The notes beneath the pieces were generated by a model. The model did not search any database. It was not told where the DNA came from and saw only the letters and a list, made by a program, of their open reading frames with translations. Source: Candidatus Fermentithermobacillaceae bacterium (GTDB taxonomy: Bacteria > Bacillota > Sulfobacillia > Fermentithermobacillales > Fermentithermobacillaceae). Taken from it: a stretch of DNA of 64,000 nt. Where the stretch lies: NCBI GenBank assembly GCA_012841375.1, contig DUUV01000028.1, positions 563 through 64,562 on the forward strand, written 5' to 3'. Every line of letters begins with the position of its first letter. Positions within the stretch are counted from its first letter, which is position 1. The position numbers and the translations under genes were made by a program. This document shows, piece by piece, positions 7,345 through 14,505 of this stretch.

Positions 7345-9678
7345 CTACACGATCGCCCACAGCCCGGAGATGATTCCGGTGATGAAGAGCGTCGCGACCC
7401 AGTCTCTCCACGTGATCGCGAACGAGACCCGGTAAGTCCTGTCGCGGTAGAGCCCGAACGCCCGGCCCTCCATGGAGATCGTGAGGTTGTCCACCTTCTC
7501 CAGAGCCGATATCACCAGGGGCATGACTGTGTACTTGACGTAACGGGGGAGACTCTTTAGGCCGGCGGAGCCCACGTCAATTCCCTTGCTAAGCTGGGCG
7601 TTCCTCACCTGAACCATCTCGTATCCGAAGATCGGGATAAACCTTAAGGCCACAACCAGCATAAAGCCGTACCGGTAGGGGAGTCCTGCCTGCATTAGGG
7701 AGTAGGCCAGGTGGTTCGGGTCGGTGGTGACGACAAAAAGGAAACTGGTGAAGATGACGTTCAGGAACCGAAGGGCCAGGCCAATGCCTCTCACCAATCC
7801 CTGAGACCACACGACCACACTGACCCGGCCCAGAGAAAACAAAGGGATAGGCGTGCCTTGCTTGAAGAAGAACATCTGGGCCAGCAATACGGTGGCGGAA
7901 AACACCGTCAGGACCCTCAGCCTTCTGCGGAAGCGGTCGAACCCGGCACCGCTGAGAGCCGCCCCCAGCACCAGGGAGGCGGACAGCACGGCTTGGCGGG
8001 ATATCCCGGATGCGGAGAAAGCGAGCACGGTGATGAGGACGAGCAAGAAAGCCTTGCACAGCGGGTTCAACGAGTGGAGGAACGAATGGCCCGGCTGAAA
8101 GCCTAACACTCTGGGCGATATACCCGGACGAACACCGGCAGCGTTGTCAGCCGTGCGCCGGGAAGACTTGCTCCCAAGGCGTCCGTCCTCATCGAACTCG
8201 CTCTCGGAGTGGGCAGCGAACGGGGTGAACTCGTGCCTTCCCATCTCCCGGAGCGCTTCAAACGCCCGATCGGTGTCCGCATCGACCGCTACGCATCCGT
8301 CCTGGAGGAAAATGACTCTTGAACACATCGCTTGGACCAGCTCCGGATCATGGCAGACCATAAGGGTCGCCCCGCCTTGCCGGACGTGGGCCGCCAGTTC
8401 CTCCGCAATTGCACTCACCATATCAGGGTCCTGTCCCGTGAACGGTTCGTCCAGGAGCAGGAGCTTCCGGTCGTACACCAGGAGCGACGTCATGTTGAGG
8501 CGCTTCTTTTGCCCCATGCTGAGAGAGAAGGGACTTCTGTCCTCAAGCCCGGCCAGCCCGAACCTCTCCGTTATCTCCTGAAGTCTGCCGGAAGGGCTCT
8601 TTCCCAACCCTTCGGCCGTAAGCATGATCTCGCGGCTGACTGTGCTTTCAGACACCTGGTGATTAGGGTTCTGAAATGAGAGGCCCACAAACCCTGCCCG
8701 TTCCCGGACCGGCGTCCTCACAGCCTCTGCTCCGCCCAACGCGATAGAGCCGCCCGTCGGCTCAATGAGGCCCATGATCGTAGAAAGCAGGGTTGACTTG
8801 CCGCTCCCGTTATCGCCCATGAGAGCCACGATCTCGCCCGGCCGGATCTCGAGTGAGACATCCTGGAGCACTTGCCGCTGTCCGTACCCAGCGCACAGGT
8901 CCCTAATGGATAGAAGCGGCGGTCCCTGGCTTCCGGTCTCGTCTTTCGTCCGGACAATCCTCCCGGCAATCCGCCTGGCCGCCTGAACGAGGGGCCTGCC
9001 TTGCTCCTCGAAGACGTTCCCGTTCTCTACTCGTATCAGTCTGTCTGACAAGCGGGCGAGATGTCTCAGCCGGTGTTCCACGACCATTATCGCTGTGCCC
9101 GTCTTTTTCAGGGCGGATAGCGTGTCCAACACCGCCCGGGTACCTGACGGGTCGAGATTGGCCGTGGGTTCGTCCAAGACGATGACCTTGGGACGGAGGA
9201 CCAAAATGGAGGCTATGGCCACACGCTGCTTCTCACCGCCGGACAGGGAATAGACGTCTCTCTGGGCAAGGTGCTCCGCTCGGCAGGTCTTGAGCGCTTC
9301 CATGACCCTGCCCTCAATCTCCCGGGCAGGGACCTTCAGGTTTTCCAGGCCGAAGGCCACCTCGTCCATCACTGTCAGGGTGCAGAGCTGGGCTTCGGGA
9401 TCCTGGCGCACCATCCCGATGGTGCCCAAGAGTTGAACAGGGGAATGTGAGCGGGTATCCAGACCGCCGATCAAGACTTCGCCCGTCATCTCGCCGGCGA
9501 TGGAGTGGGGGATAAACCCTGCCATGGCCAAGCAAAGGGTGGACTTGCCGCCTCCGCTTGGCCCGGTTACGGTCGTGAACGACCCTTCGGACAGGGAGAG
9601 CGACACCCCCGACAGAGCGTGCCGTGTGCCGCCCCTGTAACGGAAGGACAAGTCCCTTATGTCTACCGCAACGTTCAC
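7345..9678 (-). CDS. Single-chain ECF module: two ATPase domains fused to an EcfT transmembrane domain
   Basis: NBD1 GPSGGGKST / LSGGEKQR / VLDEPT. NBD2 GDNGSGKST / LSMGQKKR / LLDEPF. C-terminal EcfT motifs LHSLNP..K, ALRFIP, NAQLSKG and SMEGRAF. Confidence 0.9.
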   Translation of the reverse strand: MNVAVDIRDLSFRYRGGTRHALSGVSLSLSEGSFTTVTGPSGGGKSTLCLAMAGFIPHSIAGEMTGEVLIGGLDTRSHSPVQLLGTIGMVRQDPEAQLCTLTVMDEVAFGLENLKVPAREIEGRVMEALKTCRAEHLAQRDVYSLSGGEKQRVAIASILVLRPKVIVLDEPTANLDPSGTRAVLDTLSALKKTGTAIMVVEHRLRHLARLSDRLIRVENGNVFEEQGRPLVQAARRIAGRIVRTKDETGSQGPPLLSIRDLCAGYGQRQVLQDVSLEIRPGEIVALMGDNGSGKSTLLSTIMGLIEPTGGSIALGGAEAVRTPVRERAGFVGLSFQNPNHQVSESTVSREIMLTAEGLGKSPSGRLQEITERFGLAGLEDRSPFSLSMGQKKRLNMTSLLVYDRKLLLLDEPFTGQDPDMVSAIAEELAAHVRQGGATLMVCHDPELVQAMCSRVIFLQDGCVAVDADTDRAFEALREMGRHEFTPFAAHSESEFDEDGRLGSKSSRRTADNAAGVRPGISPRVLGFQPGHSFLHSLNPLCKAFLLVLITVLAFSASGISRQAVLSASLVLGAALSGAGFDRFRRRLRVLTVFSATVLLAQMFFFKQGTPIPLFSLGRVSVVVWSQGLVRGIGLALRFLNVIFTSFLFVVTTDPNHLAYSLMQAGLPYRYGFMLVVALRFIPIFGYEMVQVRNAQLSKGIDVGSAGLKSLPRYVKYTVMPLVISALEKVDNLTISMEGRAFGLYRDRTYRVSFAITWRDWVATLFITGIISGLWAIV

Positions 9679-10709
9679 TTCACTACCAACTTGCTGACCT
9701 TCTGCACCCAGTATCCACCTTCGTAGTTTCCGGCAACCAGCCGCAAGGTATCTCCTTCTTCGATGATGATCATCCGGTCATCTGCCATCACGTCGGCAAG
9801 ATCAAAGTCAACCTGATAGCCATCGGATGCCACCACCGTCACGGTCTTTGACCCGGGCTTCGGGCCGGCCTCGCTCAAGATATCAGTGACAAGCACCCCC
9901 GTGTACTCCCTGGGGGCGACATAAGTGACCTGTCCTTTGAGCTCGGCAACTACGGTGACCTTTTCCAGCCTGGAGATGTCCACGGCGAGAGGTTTCTCCA
10001 CGTTGCCCTCCACGCCCAGCGCCGCGCCTTTCCAAGGGGCCTCATAGACATTAGTGAAGTAGTATCCTGCACCCACGGCCAACGCTACAGCCAAGGCCAG
10101 GGTGACATAACGGACTGACTTGGGCGAGGATGGGACCGAGACCGGGGCTTCCTGCATCATGCTGGGACGCACTTGGTGGACCGTTGTGAGCACCGAGTAA
10201 CCGAAGCCGCCGGCAAACAAAGCTCCCGACACCAGCGACAGAAAGGTGATGAACGCCAGGTAGCCCCATGGAGCCCCCGAGAAATACACCAACTGGAACA
10301 CAATGACGTTGGCGGCGGAGGCGATGGCGCCCCCTGTGATATAGGAGAGGACGCTGCGCCTTCTAGTACCCGCAAGCAAGAGGTCGACCACCAAACCCTG
10401 TACCAGTGACACTATGACGATGACAGACCCGTGGGTGCTGCCTGTAAGGAGTTCCACGGTGCCTTTGACCAACCCGCAAAGCGAACCTGCGCCGAAGGAC
10501 CGCACCAGTCCCGCCGCCAGCACTATCCAGAAGACATGGAGCCCGGATACGAACTGGCCCGCCCCGAACGGTACGCCGAGCAAGTTGTTCAGGAGAGTGC
10601 CAAGATAGCCCACATAGGTGCTCATGACCCCTCCCAGCCCGCTCAGGACTGCTATGATCAGGAGGTCTCTGGTGGAAAACCTGTACGGTTTCGCGGGTGC
10701 TGCTCTCAC
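9675..10709 (-). CDS. ECF S-component (YkoE-like) fused through an extra TM helix to an Oxidored_molyb-like (SUOX-fold) domain
   Basis: FSTRDLLIIAVL...GLHVFWIVLAAGLVR..GAG...VELLTG...SLVQGLVVDL fits the S-component pattern. The tail carries YTGV, ASDGY, LRLV and WVQKVSKLVV. GTGA overlaps on both sides. Confidence 0.78.
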   Translation of the reverse strand: MRAAPAKPYRFSTRDLLIIAVLSGLGGVMSTYVGYLGTLLNNLLGVPFGAGQFVSGLHVFWIVLAAGLVRSFGAGSLCGLVKGTVELLTGSTHGSVIVIVSLVQGLVVDLLLAGTRRRSVLSYITGGAIASAANVIVFQLVYFSGAPWGYLAFITFLSLVSGALFAGGFGYSVLTTVHQVRPSMMQEAPVSVPSSPKSVRYVTLALAVALAVGAGYYFTNVYEAPWKGAALGVEGNVEKPLAVDISRLEKVTVVAELKGQVTYVAPREYTGVLVTDILSEAGPKPGSKTVTVVASDGYQVDFDLADVMADDRMIIIEEGDTLRLVAGNYEGGYWVQKVSKLVVK

Positions 10710-12358
10710 CTCGGTCTCACCTCCAGTCTGACCACGTTCTTAACCCATCTGGCGCCGGCCGATTCATATATGCCCCAGCCTTGACCTTCGACTGACGTAC
10801 CGGCGCAATCATCATTGCTGTAGACTCCGTCCGGCGGAAAGAAAGCGATCCTGTAGCCTTCCTGCCAATCGGGCGGCGTCTTTCCATCCGCGCTGAGGGC
10901 CACTATCATGTCACCCTGGATCTCAAGCCATGAGTCGTCGGGGAACACGTTCCGGTACGAGAATTCCTGAGCGTACCCGTCGGACGCGTAAACCACCAGG
11001 GTATCGGACTCTTCCATCCCGCCTACAAGGTCCAGGAGCACTCTCACCGGCACTCCACGATACAGCCTCTCGGCGCTCAGGTTCTCATAGCGGTTTTGAT
11101 ACTTGACCTTTGCTTCCCGCGTTTCGAGTCCCGAAAGCTCTTCCAGTGAGAGGAGCATCTCTCCGCCTTTGCCGCTGAGCACCAGATCATCGCTTGCGTA
11201 ACCGGCAGGCTTCTCGACAGGGGTGACCGTTATCCCGGCGGGTGTGGCCTCTACCACGGCAAAGTGATGGAAGCCGCCATCCTGGGGAGAGGCGTAGAGA
11301 CCAGCGCCGCCTCCACCGCTGGTAACGAACGTCACGCCTTCGACTGCGTTCTGGCTGAACATGTGGACGTGGCCGTTGAAGACGGCTTTGACCACGTTCT
11401 CAGGGTCGGTCAACACATCCAAAAGGGAAGCGGCCTCAACCTGGTCCAAGAAGCAGTGGTCTTCGCCCCGGGGGTCAAAGGGCGGCACGTGCATGAACAC
11501 GAGCTTGGGTGACCCCGACGCCCCCAGCGTCTCACGAAGCCAGGAAAGCCCCTCGGGACCGAGTCCCAGGGAGGAGGTATCCAGGAAAACCACTCTCCAT
11601 CCCGCGTAGTCAAAGTAGCGGTTGGGCTGACCAAATCTCGCCTGAAAGAGATCACTGTCAGAATCCCTGACATCGTGGTTTCCCGGAACCGCGAAGCACG
11701 GGACGCCAAGAGCCGAGAGCGCCTCATCGAACGCCTCGAACTCCCGCGAAGCGCCCGATGGGGTCATATCGCCCAGGTGCACAAGGAATTCCGCTTCGGA
11801 TTCGTTGATCAGTGGGACCATACTGCTAAAAACATTGTTTCGTCCCTGGGTGTCGCCTATGACCGCGAAGCGCAGCGGCTCTGTCTCTTGAGGCGTGGTT
11901 TCAAGGATGATCCTCCCGGAGCCCCTTTTCACCAAAACTTCCATGGAGGTGGGGGAGAGCCTCTTGGTTTCGATCACGGGCTCCGCGCCGGGTCGGTTCG
12001 AGCCTGCCTCAGGGCCATGAACCTCTATCGAGACAGCATCCGCCCTGATGTTCAATACCGATATGGTGAACGTCCGCCTGTCCGACGGGTCTCTCTCCAG
12101 ATCGACGCGAAGCGTCGTGGACAGCGCCTTCACAACGGCACTATCACGGGTCACACTTTGGGCCAAGCCTCCTGTCACGGACAGTTTGGGATCGGGGAGA
12201 TCCTTGCAGCCCGAGAGGCCGGCGGCCAAGACAAGGATAGCCAGGACCGTCCAAGCCGCCACCAGGGGCTGCGCCCCGTAGAACCGCCTGAAAGGACTCA
12301 AGCGAGTCCGGCGAGGTCTCACGGCTCGCGCCCGCGATGCTTTGGGAAAGATGGTCAT
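10706..12358 (-). CDS. Lipoprotein: calcineurin-like metallophosphoesterase fused to a C-terminal Oxidored_molyb-like domain
   Basis: Lipobox LSGC. Phosphoesterase motifs GDTQG, HLGD, GNHD, FMH and GHVH. C-terminal YRGVPV, ASDGY, YRIAF and WVKNVVRLEV. Confidence 0.82.
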   Translation of the reverse strand: MTIFPKASRARAVRPRRTRLSPFRRFYGAQPLVAAWTVLAILVLAAGLSGCKDLPDPKLSVTGGLAQSVTRDSAVVKALSTTLRVDLERDPSDRRTFTISVLNIRADAVSIEVHGPEAGSNRPGAEPVIETKRLSPTSMEVLVKRGSGRIILETTPQETEPLRFAVIGDTQGRNNVFSSMVPLINESEAEFLVHLGDMTPSGASREFEAFDEALSALGVPCFAVPGNHDVRDSDSDLFQARFGQPNRYFDYAGWRVVFLDTSSLGLGPEGLSWLRETLGASGSPKLVFMHVPPFDPRGEDHCFLDQVEAASLLDVLTDPENVVKAVFNGHVHMFSQNAVEGVTFVTSGGGGAGLYASPQDGGFHHFAVVEATPAGITVTPVEKPAGYASDDLVLSGKGGEMLLSLEELSGLETREAKVKYQNRYENLSAERLYRGVPVRVLLDLVGGMEESDTLVVYASDGYAQEFSYRNVFPDDSWLEIQGDMIVALSADGKTPPDWQEGYRIAFFPPDGVYSNDDCAGTSVEGQGWGIYESAGARWVKNVVRLEVRPR

Positions 12359-12448: not shown

Positions 12449-13465
12449 TTATTCCGGCAGGTTCACCAGTCTGATCTCGGCAATCTGCTTAACCCCGTGC
12501 TTCTTGCTGGGCAAGCCGGAACCGACCAATCTGAGGGGGCCTTCATCCTCGCCCAGAGGTTTCCCGTCGACTTTGTAGGCAACGATGATGTCCGCGTTGT
12601 AGGCAACCTCCTGGGAAGTGAATTCGACAGTCATGCCGTCTGCCGCGACCACCTCAATGGTGTAGCCCTTGTCTGCCAGACCTTTGTTGAAGAGGTAATG
12701 CCCTCCTTCGGCATCGCCACCGTCGAACATGGATATGACGAGCCAGAGGGGCACCCCCTCATAGACGATAGCGTCGCCTTCTTTGGTCGTCGTCTCAAAT
12801 GTCGCGGCAGGATGGGGAGTATCGGGGCATTCGGCCATGCTTTCGAAGCTCGAGCGGTCCAGCCCAACCGACTCCACTCCGGTCAGGGCGATCTCCCAAT
12901 CCGACAGCCCCTCAACCACAGTCAACTCGGCGACGGACTTTACCCAGAAGTGTCCGTCAGAGACGGCTCCATCGGGCGAAGAGAACCCGAGCCTGGGAAG
13001 CTCGGACGAGAATAGATCGCCGTCGCTGGATGTGATCAACATGGTGTCGAGGTCTGTCACCTTGAGGGCCTGGCCGTCTTCACCGTAGACCATGAGAAGT
13101 CCCTTGACCTGCTCATATGTGAGGGTCATCGTGTAGCCGTCGGATGCGGTGACGGCCAGAGCGTCGTCCTCGGTGAAGCCGCCTGCCTTCTCAAGGACTT
13201 CGTCGATGCTTACGCCCGAGAACGTGTCGGGACCGACAATGGTGCCCGTGGTCTTTATGAAACCACCTTTGCCGTCTTTAACCTCAAGAGAAGAAAGGTC
13301 GATTTCGTGGGAAGTACCGTCCCTGGCGACAACCCGAACAGAGTAGGACGGCGATGCCGGGGGATCGGGCGGCGTGGGATTGGCCTCACCGCAGGCCGCC
13401 AGAAGAACCATGGACAACACGAGGGCTAAGCCCAAGAAAACCGGTGTTCTTCGCTTCAAGCTCAC
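12449..13465 (-). CDS. Lipoprotein with two tandem Oxidored_molyb-like (SUOX-fold) domains
   Basis: GGAGG RBS before GTG 13465 and lipobox LAAC. Domain 1: FSGV, ASDGY, PRLG, WVKSVAEL. Domain 2: YEGVPL, AADG, GPLRLV, GVKQIAEI. Confidence 0.8.
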   Translation of the reverse strand: MSLKRRTPVFLGLALVLSMVLLAACGEANPTPPDPPASPSYSVRVVARDGTSHEIDLSSLEVKDGKGGFIKTTGTIVGPDTFSGVSIDEVLEKAGGFTEDDALAVTASDGYTMTLTYEQVKGLLMVYGEDGQALKVTDLDTMLITSSDGDLFSSELPRLGFSSPDGAVSDGHFWVKSVAELTVVEGLSDWEIALTGVESVGLDRSSFESMAECPDTPHPAATFETTTKEGDAIVYEGVPLWLVISMFDGGDAEGGHYLFNKGLADKGYTIEVVAADGMTVEFTSQEVAYNADIIVAYKVDGKPLGEDEGPLRLVGSGLPSKKHGVKQIAEIRLVNLPE

Positions 13466-13534
13466 ATACACCTCCGTGTGAAAGTAACCGATCTTTGATA
13501 GGAGCATGGGGCCATTGTGTAGTAGCCGGTAGGG

Positions 13535-13564
13535 TCATCCATACGGAGGCACACCAATACGCAT
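13535..13564 (-). other. Possible 9-codon leader ORF (MRIGVPPYG*) behind the riboswitch Shine-Dalgarno
   Basis: GGAAAGGAG-tggttcaa-ATG CGT ATT GGT GTG CCT CCG TAT GGA TGA on the minus strand. Confidence 0.35.
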
Positions 13565-13571
13565 TTGAACC

Positions 13572-13667
13572 ACTCCTTTCCAAATACGGGAGGCCCAGGC
13601 GTTTCCGCCAAGACCCTATCGGCCGCCCCGCCGTGGCCCTACTGCTTTAGGCAAGACGGCTCGGAGT
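13572..13667 (-). ncRNA. Moco/Tuco riboswitch (Moco RNA motif), P3-less variant
   Basis: ACUCCGA-GCCGUCUUGC-CUAA..-GCGGGGCGGC-CGAU-AGGGU..GGCG GAAA CGCC..GCCUCCCGUAUUUGGAAAGGAGU. P1 ACUCC/GGAGU, a fully paired 10-bp P2, a GNRA-capped P4, and the hallmark CCUCCCGUAUUUGGAAAGG 3' tract. Confidence 0.88.
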
Positions 13668-13803
13668 CGCGCCTCATTGTTTCGACACCGGGAGCGCGAA
13701 ATCCTTCGGAGGAAAGCGGGTTCATGCTGTGCAGCGTACCGGTGATTACCGTCATGTAGCAGGGCTGTATTAGCCGTTCGCCCCGCCGGCCTCCGCCCAA
13801 ACT

Positions 13804-14307
13804 CTAGGGAGCGCCGTCGTCTCCGTGTAACCCAGGGAACGCTCCCGCGCGGTACCTGCCATCCTCTCTCAAGATGCTGAGAAGAGCTTTCTCGGCGTCG
13901 CTCAGTGTCAGGCAGTCTTCGGGAAGGGGGAGGAGCTCGGGGATCTCCAACACCTCTTCGCCGTCCCGGGTCGCCTTGCGCGCGAGGCCCAAGTCAACCA
14001 GCAGTTTGACTATTCCCCGGAGGCTCTTCCGGTACGGTTTCCCGTACTCTTCGGCGAACCGCCGTTCCACGTCCTCTTTGGCGCAAGCCTGTCTCGGGTC
14101 GGGTGTGTAGTTCTTGGCCTCGGCGTGCCACCTTTCGAGCCATTTCCACATTTCCTCCCCCTTGCAGCCCGACCAGCCCAGAATGGCAATGGATGTGAAG
14201 GTCACCCCGGCTTCGGCCGGAAGGTGCCGGTGCCACCCGAGCCCAAGAAATTGGCGCACTTGGGGCAAAGACGTCCACATGGTAGCGTTTTTCTCCTCTT
14301 CGTACAT
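13804..14307 (-). CDS. Hypothetical protein (weak resemblance to DUF6042 or winged-helix proteins)
   Basis: GAGGTG RBS before ATG 14307. Contains GWHRHLP, LVDLGL and IPELLPLPEDCL. Confidence 0.55.
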   Translation of the reverse strand: MYEEEKNATMWTSLPQVRQFLGLGWHRHLPAEAGVTFTSIAILGWSGCKGEEMWKWLERWHAEAKNYTPDPRQACAKEDVERRFAEEYGKPYRKSLRGIVKLLVDLGLARKATRDGEEVLEIPELLPLPEDCLTLSDAEKALLSILREDGRYRAGAFPGLHGDDGAP

Positions 14308-14505
14308 CCTGATCACCTCAGAGGACCCGTTCGCCGCACCCAATGGGAATTCCTGCCAATTAAGACAGAAAGTTGTCGGGGAAGCTGTCTTTTCGCGGTG
14401 CCGTGGACTTACGCAGGACTGAGCCCGGTCCGGTCAGAATCCATCCTTGGATGCGGGAGGCCATCTTCCTCTGAGTGCGCATAACGTCTAGTAGGCATCT
14501 CTTAA

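Follow-up and report, generated by a model that had tools for sequence, protein, structure and literature searches.

In Haemophilus, NadN (an NAD pyrophosphatase/5'-nucleotidase lipoprotein) works with e(P4) and PnuC as a surface metallophosphoesterase (MPE) that cuts a dinucleotide cofactor for an importer; it belongs to the UshA/5'-nucleotidase branch, has a 5_nucleotid_C domain and no fused ligand-holding domain, and handles a cofactor other than those discussed here. The latter, the molybdenum cofactor (Moco) and its tungsten analogue (Tuco), are commonly regarded as too unstable for sharing, and each prokaryote using them is taken to synthesise its own. PruR, a periplasmic protein, has a SUOX fold without the Cys, in which a pterin is sandwiched between Tyr104 and Trp160 and hydrogen-bonded by Asn102 (PMC11194511), and P3-less RNAs of the Moco riboswitch family associate with tungsten-cofactor genes and also control tungstate transporters (Regulski et al., PMC2408646). 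We analysed a 64,000-nucleotide stretch of contig DUUV01000028.1 from a Candidatus Fermentithermobacillaceae bacterium, here called the window, in which the second gene of a four-gene operon (gene 2) encodes a lipoprotein joining an MPE domain to a SUOX-like domain.

The comparative data do not agree with the assumption that every user makes its own cofactor, as the near-complete genome from which the window derives has AOR-family tungstoenzymes, a formate dehydrogenase and a MobA-FdhD fusion, with no MoaA, MoaC, MoaE or MoeA and no tungstate transporter. On balance, and with modest confidence, we regard the gene 2 product as a predicted dinuclear metallophosphoesterase, extracytoplasmic and membrane-tethered, with a role in cofactor salvage. 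The architecture of gene 2 and its operon are not due to chance, as about 45 protein clusters share the full MPE-SUOX-like fusion and 58 loci share the operon. The parts of gene 2 are as follows, with coordinates counted from the first nucleotide of the window:

10706..12358, minus strand: gene 2, lipoprotein MPE-SUOX-like fusion of 550 aa (open reading frame (ORF), Pfam, homologue alignment, fold models)
12206..12358, minus strand: signal peptide with lipobox LSGC, Cys51 (sequence inspection and family comparison)
11897..12187, minus strand: N-terminal beta-sandwich, residues 58-154, without family assignment (AlphaFold2 model; no Pfam match)
11213..11875, minus strand: calcineurin-like MPE domain, residues 162-382 (Pfam, motifs, profile and fold matches to GpdQ and Rv0805)
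10715..11185, minus strand: Cys-less SUOX-fold, PruR-like domain, residues 392-548 (domain-only model, Foldseek, alignment)

Domains of the gene 2 lipoprotein

The ATG startcodon of gene 2 is preceded by an AGGTGA-like Shine-Dalgarno site, and its stop overlaps the GTG startcodon of gene 3 by 4 nt. The hydrophobic signal spans residues 28-51 and terminates in the lipobox L48-S49-G50-C51; a hydrophobic N-terminus is present in 38/40 members of the gene 2 family and a lipobox-like Cys in 16/40, while a twin-arginine translocation (Tat) consensus, looked for as a sign that a SUOX enzyme is exported with its cofactor in place, was found in none of the 40. An AlphaFold2 model built from 28 homologues has three domains (pLDDT 89.4, pTM 0.82). 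The N-terminal domain is modelled as a nine-strand beta-sandwich, mostly at pLDDT >90, and is absent from approximately 11/40 homologues; in isolation (residues 58-154) it gave no Pfam match even at E <= 10, including PF16656 (Pur_ac_phosph_N), a family carried by wider sequence neighbours of the gene 2 protein. The first-pass annotation, made from the sequence alone, had given the domain order as LSGC lipobox, uncharacterised N-terminal domain, calcineurin-like domain and SUOX-like domain, and the Pfam searches, models and alignment show this to be accurate in every detail.

With regard to the C-terminal domain, the Pfam Oxidored_molyb profile (PF00174) matches below threshold, both in the whole protein (residues 423-494, 14.3 bits, E 0.03, cut-off 24) and in the isolated domain (18.9 bits, E 0.0012), and a sequence-profile search of the domain against the PDB gave nothing even at E <= 10. 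The domain-only AlphaFold2 model (pLDDT 92.8) is unambiguously of the SUOX fold: the top 28 PDB matches in Foldseek are all SUOX-fold proteins (PruR, SoxC, SorA, SorT, YedY and nitrate reductase), the best being PruR 7kom (E 3e-7, TM on target 0.71) and 7rkb, a neopterin complex. The Mo-ligand hairpin, placed by motif order and not by superposition, reads (F/Y)QN..GN..G.G.Y.GV and has no conserved Cys, and the invariant DGY (Y462) and C-terminal RW (W538) match the Tyr and Trp of PruR by sequence order only. The domain carries a 24-aa insertion with a near-invariant Cys518, and lacks the PruR-type PW motif at the position of the lost Cys. HHalign detects homology (probability 96%) between it and the outside domain of the gene 3 S-component, and the four SUOX-like domains of the operon are all mutually homologous. 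The subtype of the C-terminal domain counts 118 representative clusters at E <= 1e-30, and is also found alone in secreted proteins of ~200 aa and in tandem arrays of up to nine copies. At one archaeal locus (L045:2178-6683), at least 10 SUOX-like domains of alternating subtypes are found in arrays directly upstream of the MPE gene.

The SUOX fold itself, together with the reading of similar S. wolfei genes as sulphite oxidases by Regulski et al. (PMC2408646), would allow the C-terminal domain to be a real Moco/Tuco enzyme domain, making the protein a bifunctional surface oxidoreductase-phosphatase. This is barely credible, however, given the QN..GN hairpin without Cys in place of C.GN, the PF00174 scores under the cut-off, the Sec/lipoprotein-type signal without Tat motif, and a host which is unable to make the cofactor.

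The MPE domain is a member of the calcineurin-like superfamily, as Metallophos (PF00149) matches residues 162-333 at E 1.4e-15 (58.6 bits, cut-off 21.5). The motifs GDTQG (168-172), HLGD (194-197), GNHD (226-229), H290 and GHVH (329-332), already listed in the first-pass annotation, were confirmed in the alignment of 28 bacterial and archaeal homologues, in which D169, D197, N227, H228, H290, H330 and H332 never vary and Q171 is conserved to at least 90%. Replacement of the usual motif I His by Gln is family-wide, with GD[STN]QG present in 40/42 family members (~95%). The nearest solved relatives in a profile search are GpdQ (E 9e-17) and Rv0805 (E 4e-12), which are also the top Foldseek matches (E 4e-13 to 2e-12, TM on target 0.67-0.75), followed by purple acid phosphatases (PAPs) and SMPDL3A. 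Two more specific assignments were rejected: the CpdA/SpdA equivalogs (class III cyclic-nucleotide phosphodiesterases) score far under their NCBIfam cut-offs (SpdA 49.1 bits vs 400, CpdA 39 vs 225), and a PAP would have the Tyr ligand of GDxxY, where gene 2 has GDMTP, as well as PF16656, which is absent.

The Gln in motif I of ~95% of members could mean that the MPE domain is catalytically silent, and acts as a phosphate-recognising receptor module which captures the phosphorylated cofactor together with the SUOX-like domain; the tandem SUOX-like arrays of up to nine copies likewise point to a capture function. We consider this highly unlikely, since all other metal ligands and the general-acid His of GNHD are invariant across bacteria and archaea, and since D-x-Q is active in ADPRibase-Mn, where motif I is conserved as D[V/I]Q and the Gln carbonyl ligates metal 1 (PMC4334965). 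The conservation of D[V/I]Q in these active enzymes makes D-x-Q compatible with activity, and by this analogy the motif I Gln of gene 2 appears to be no defect. ADPRibase-Mn enzymes cleave the phosphoanhydrides of nucleoside-diphosphate-X compounds, such as ADP-ribose and CDP-alcohols (PMC4334965).

The operon, its riboswitch and its conservation

Gene 2 is the second of four co-directional, overlapping genes, with a riboswitch immediately upstream and unrelated housekeeping genes on either side. The other elements are:

13557..13678, minus strand: Moco/Tuco riboswitch aptamer RF01055, P3-less form, operon leader (79.5 bits, E 1e-17; P3 columns deleted in the alignment)
12449..13507, minus strand: gene 1, lipoprotein with two SUOX-like (Oxidored_molyb-like) domains (PF00174 E 7.6e-10, in two stretches)
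9675..10709, minus strand: gene 3, YkoE-like S-component of an energy-coupling factor (ECF) transporter with a C-terminal SUOX-like domain (PF09819 E 9.5e-18; PF00174 E 1.5e-6)
7345..9678, minus strand: gene 4, ATPase-ATPase-T component (A-A'-T) in one polypeptide (ABC_tran twice, CbiQ; ECF_ATPase models 307-318 bits)

A cofactor riboswitch followed by genes for an S-component, a T-component and two ATPase domains is what defines a riboswitch-controlled ECF importer, and the operon has all of these; in profile searches gene 3 matches both YkoE (5edl, E 1.4e-12) and SoxC (E 2e-6). The first-pass annotation had placed gene 2 in a cofactor uptake operon, which agrees with the YkoE-like S-component, the A-A'-T fusion, the SUOX-like lipoprotein and the RF01055 element, a single copy in the genome. 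As PF09819 is the YkoE family of hydroxymethylpyrimidine (HMP)/thiamine transporters, a thiamine pyrophosphate (TPP) riboswitch was expected, but Rfam gave RF01055 and no TPP element.

The start of gene 1 is probably the GTG at 13465, located 5 nt after GGAGG and giving the lipoprotein signal MSLKRRTPVFLGLALVLSMVLLAAC, with the ATG at 13507 being less likely. A 9-codon ORF (MRIGVPPYG*, 13535-13564, minus strand) has its AUG 8 nt after a GGAG that is conserved at the aptamer's 3' edge, and this ORF could be part of the expression platform. A DUF6042 gene (13804-14343, minus strand) lies just upstream of the riboswitch and is kept at the locus of the closest relative (L001:2675-3077, 63-69% identity).

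A scan of species-representative genomes identified 58 loci with the full fusion, in metagenome-assembled genomes of Bacillota, Thermoplasmata, and the Asgard groups Hodarchaeota and Thorarchaeota. Practically every one of these loci with enough flanking sequence contains the same set of four genes, in variable order. Sampling 150 genomes across the class gave no other full fusion. In 18 other bacterial loci the operon likewise begins with a Moco-family riboswitch, which stands directly before the MPE gene in approximately 10. P3 is absent from all of the orthologous bacterial leaders in the alignment (18/18); riboswitches of 131-141 nt had been candidates for the P3-bearing Moco type, and the alignment shows that these have an extended P2 and also lack P3. 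In S. wolfei, two P3-less RNAs precede genes annotated as 'putative sulphite oxidase', an unexplained exception to the association with tungsten-cofactor genes (Regulski et al., PMC2408646), and these genes are suspected to be members of the same operon system.

The constancy of the MPE was assessed in 80 metagenome loci fetched by the S-component alone, to avoid circularity, 40 of which have at least 3.5 kb of upstream sequence. The gene 2-type fusion is present in 25 of the 40, a different secreted MPE in seven, and no MPE was found within 7 kb in the remaining eight; in six of the variant, MPE-less loci scanned for riboswitches, the long operons extend beyond the fetched 7 kb. Had the gene usually been absent from homologous operons, this would have spoken against the first-pass annotation; an MPE is in fact located beside the transporter in 32/40 loci, although the fusion itself is restricted to 25/40. 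The alternative MPE combines Pur_ac_phosph_N and Metallophos domains, has GDVQD as motif I, and is found beside giant proteins of SUOX repeats. In these variant operons (L077, L078, L081, L086, L089, L093 and L102), the PAP-like MPE is located ~3-6 kb upstream of the S-component, and the SUOX-repeat proteins are 1000-1150 aa long and share a C-terminal domain of ~110 aa with the PAP-like MPE. A phosphoesterase has therefore been recruited to these S-component loci at least twice. The MPE step is common yet accessory, not obligatory.

One metagenome locus (L110:6721-6839 and L110:10719-15039) has two Moco-family riboswitches. One precedes the S-A-T genes, and the second precedes genes for an SLH protein and a surface protein of >921 aa, whose N-terminus is Oxidored_molyb-like and which also has leucine-rich repeats and two Shr-like haemoglobin-interacting domains. 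The latter protein may be a receptor which strips cofactor from foreign proteins.

Cofactor synthesis in the host genomes and the proposed salvage route

AOR-family tungstoenzymes (AFOR_N) are encoded in every one of the operon-bearing genomes examined (50/50, 1-12 copies each), compared with 5/14 control genomes (p = 7e-8) and 10/14 close relatives (p = 0.0016), and AOR genes adjoin the operon in just 1/138 loci. With regard to biosynthesis, MoaC is present in 18, MoeA in 21 and MoaE in nine of the 50 hosts, and when only AOR-positive genomes are compared, those with the operon have MoaC less often than those lacking it (Fisher p = 0.015). Twelve Bacillota hosts (G004, G006-G009, G012, G016-G019, G021 and G022; loci L005, L007-L010, L013, L017-L020, L022 and L023) contain MoaC and MoeA without a detected MoaE, which means that their MoaE has diverged beyond the reach of the search or that molybdopterin (MPT) synthase is truly missing.

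The window's genome (2.37 Mb, 97.8% complete) contains no MoaC, MoeA or MoaE detectable with Pfam profiles. All ORFs of the tupA-tupB-tupC-moeA-moeA/PBP-moaA-moaC-MOSC/moaB clusters of three relatives were compared with the whole assembly using tblastn, and gave no match other than a weak generic radical-SAM match for MoaA and a generic ABC-ATPase match for TupC, while the genes flanking these clusters match the window's genome at 70-81% identity. The genome encodes three AORs, and contig C20 (189-4356) encodes a Cys-type FdhA (932 aa) followed by an overlapping 459-aa MobA-FdhD fusion (PF12804 E 2e-38; PF02634 E 8e-53). The retention of the last maturation steps without synthesis, metal insertion or Tup-type uptake suggests that metal-loaded MPT enters ready-made, and the retention of MobA-FdhD without the earlier steps suggests that it does so in a non-nucleotide form, i.e. 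at the MPT level. In the relatives, one MoeA is fused to a PBP_like (PF12727) domain of the oxyanion-binding type (L162:4207-6135, L161:8734-10662 and L160:4598-6748), and is encoded inside the tupABC-moeA-moaA-moaC-MOSC/moaB clusters; this fusion may be a tungstate-specific insertase.

We also considered that the substrate of the transporter is not a pyranopterin at all, and is instead tungstate/molybdate, another vitamin or a pyrimidine, in which case the MPE would scavenge phosphate or act as a nucleotidase of broad range at the surface, and the SUOX-like domains would dock the surface proteins onto the S-component. P3-less Moco RNAs also control tungstate transporters, four mutually homologous SUOX-like domains could simply interact with one another, 18-21 of the 50 hosts are able to make the cofactor, and AOR genes are next to the operon in only one of the 138 loci. 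We nevertheless judge it quite unlikely: without MoeA, MoaA, MoaC and MoaB, imported tungstate would be useless to the host, the S-component is YkoE-like and not CbiM/NikM-like, the C-terminal domain has the fold of proven pterin binders, and a phosphoesterase, although recruited twice, would be of no use in taking up oxyanions.

The explanation which we favour, again with a little more confidence than doubt, is that gene 2 encodes an ecto-phosphodiesterase/pyrophosphatase which holds the pterin of a scavenged tungsten or molybdenum cofactor, and trims its dinucleotide or phosphorylated forms to importable W/Mo-MPT. The C-terminal SUOX/PruR-like domain would bind the pterin part of cofactor released by other organisms, and the GpdQ/Rv0805-like domain would cleave a phosphodiester or phosphoanhydride bond, the likeliest target being the pyrophosphate link of molybdopterin guanine or cytosine dinucleotide (MGD or MCD). 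This would free GMP or CMP, the remaining metal-loaded MPT keeping its phosphate; a less likely variant is that another phosphoester is removed. The W/Mo-MPT would then be handed to the homologous SUOX-like domains of the gene 1 lipoprotein and the S-component, and be imported by the YkoE-like ECF transporter, after which it could serve the AORs directly or be re-guanylylated to MGD by MobA-FdhD for formate dehydrogenase. Free cofactor would bind the P3-less riboswitch and shut the operon off. In this scheme we infer what the substrate is, which bond is cut, how the product is handed over and whether the riboswitch turns the operon on or off, and the accessory distribution of the MPE would be a better fit to a converter which widens the range of usable cofactor forms than to an obligatory step.

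The first-pass annotation had proposed that the enzyme processes MPT or its dinucleotide forms while the fused domain holds the substrate. This proposal is supported in part. Its pyranopterin link is supported by the Moco-family riboswitch, the PruR-like fold and a host with cofactor-dependent enzymes without the biosynthesis, and the retention of MobA-FdhD while the earlier steps are missing gives indirect support to the dinucleotide forms. The P3-less riboswitch and the presence of AOR in all hosts favour the tungsten cofactor over molybdenum specifically.

It had also been suggested that the cofactor is dephosphorylated before import. NAD, FAD and TPP enter cells after being cut back to nucleosides or vitamins, and in this manner the salvage could be the same with the MPE as a phosphomonoesterase, which removes the terminal phosphate of MPT (or of another pterin phosphate) so that an uncharged pterin is imported. 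This would be consistent with PAPs, which are monoesterases, being the next-nearest structural relatives, with PF16656 in the wider sequence neighbours and a PAP-like MPE in the variant operons, and with YkoE-type S-components binding small unphosphorylated heterocycles such as thiamine (5edl). No MPT kinase is known, however, and AOR-type cofactors need the phosphate, which makes removal of the nucleotide more likely than dephosphorylation. The host also keeps MobA, the substrate of which is phosphorylated metal-MPT, the Tyr ligand of PAPs (GDxxY) is replaced by GDMTP, and the absence of the MPE from 20% of operons fits poorly with an obligatory step. A phosphomonoesterase is therefore unlikely.

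Several observations weigh against salvage of W/Mo-MPT by trimming of dinucleotides. Free Moco and Tuco are very labile, so that an extracellular pool is hypothetical. With MoaC kept by 18/50 hosts and MoeA by 21/50, the system is not limited to auxotrophs, although vitamin importers normally occur also in hosts which are able to make the vitamin. A completeness figure covers one of the 50 host genomes only, that of the window, and two genomes of the same genus (G082 and G119) each have one, more divergent AOR (E ~1e-64) with no MoaC, no MPE fusion and no S-component. In the eight of 40 transporter-anchored loci without an MPE within 7 kb, the step is either dispensable or supplied elsewhere. 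The closest enzymes of solved structure hydrolyse glycerophosphodiesters and cyclic nucleotides and are not dinucleotide pyrophosphatases, and the pocket of PruR is truncated for small pterins, so that the fold does not imply binding of full MPT (PMC11194511).

Full-text literature searches found nothing which combines Moco riboswitches, ECF transporters and uptake of molybdopterin or tungsten cofactor. Tentatively, and at somewhat less than an even chance, the operon may represent the first uptake or salvage pathway for W/Mo pyranopterin cofactors in prokaryotes, with the fusion converting foreign MGD/MCD to metal-MPT; as such it would be common to anaerobic Bacillota, Thermoplasmata and Asgard archaea, many of them having lost cofactor biosynthesis. 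If true, this would mean cross-feeding of tungsten cofactor in anaerobic digesters and sediments, with some AOR- or formate dehydrogenase-dependent anaerobes being cofactor auxotrophs which live on the cofactor of their neighbours, and it would help to explain how AOR-rich Asgard and Thermoplasmata genomes can do without moa genes. Of all the parts, the MPE fusion lends itself best to experiments, as it has a soluble ectodomain, and its substrate preference would reveal the form in which the cofactor is traded, while the predicted pterin-holding domain could help to stabilise or purify labile cofactors.

Comparison with described systems

The core of the S-component matches that of the YkoEDC HMP/thiamine transporter, which likewise belongs to the dedicated (group I) ECF systems and has a duplicated ATPase. 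Unlike YkoEDC, the gene 2 operon has a Tuco-type instead of a TPP riboswitch and an S-component with an extra outside domain, and it includes accessory surface proteins, which are normally absent from ECF systems.

For the C-terminal domain the closest comparison is PruR (7kom, 7rkb and 7kos; PMC11194511), which is also a Cys-less, extracytoplasmic SUOX fold and in some cases lipoprotein-like. PruR is a stand-alone signalling partner of the diguanylate cyclase DcpA in Proteobacteria, binds monapterin and neopterin, and has the PW motif, whereas the gene 2 domain is fused to an enzyme, has the 24-aa Cys-containing insertion, and is encoded in an ECF transporter operon without a DcpA-type GGDEF/EAL neighbour.

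With regard to the catalytic domain, GpdQ (the Enterobacter aerogenes glycerophosphodiesterase; 2dxl, 3d03) and Rv0805 (the M. tuberculosis cyclic-nucleotide phosphodiesterase; 2hy1, 3ib7) share the dinuclear-site motifs II-V with gene 2, are its best profile and fold matches, and have diesterase chemistry. They differ in being soluble, single-domain proteins with D-x-H in motif I, and have no SUOX-fold domain, riboswitch or ECF context. The D-x-Q of motif I is shared with the ADPRibase-Mn-like diphosphatases (2nxf; PMC4334965), which are cytosolic, eukaryote-centred and only weakly related in sequence (E 5e-5). PAPs (kidney bean PAP, 4dhl and 1kbp) share with gene 2 a beta-sandwich placed N-terminally of the catalytic domain, as well as the lack of a motif I His, and differ in the Tyr ligand of GDxxY, which gene 2 lacks, although variant operons do use a PAP-like MPE. 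NadN is similar in its proposed logic, the trimming of a dinucleotide cofactor outside the cell to an importable form. Compared with all of these, gene 2 combines known kinds of protein in a new way, joining a GpdQ-like MPE to a PruR-like, predicted pterin domain, and the system which it serves would be new if confirmed.

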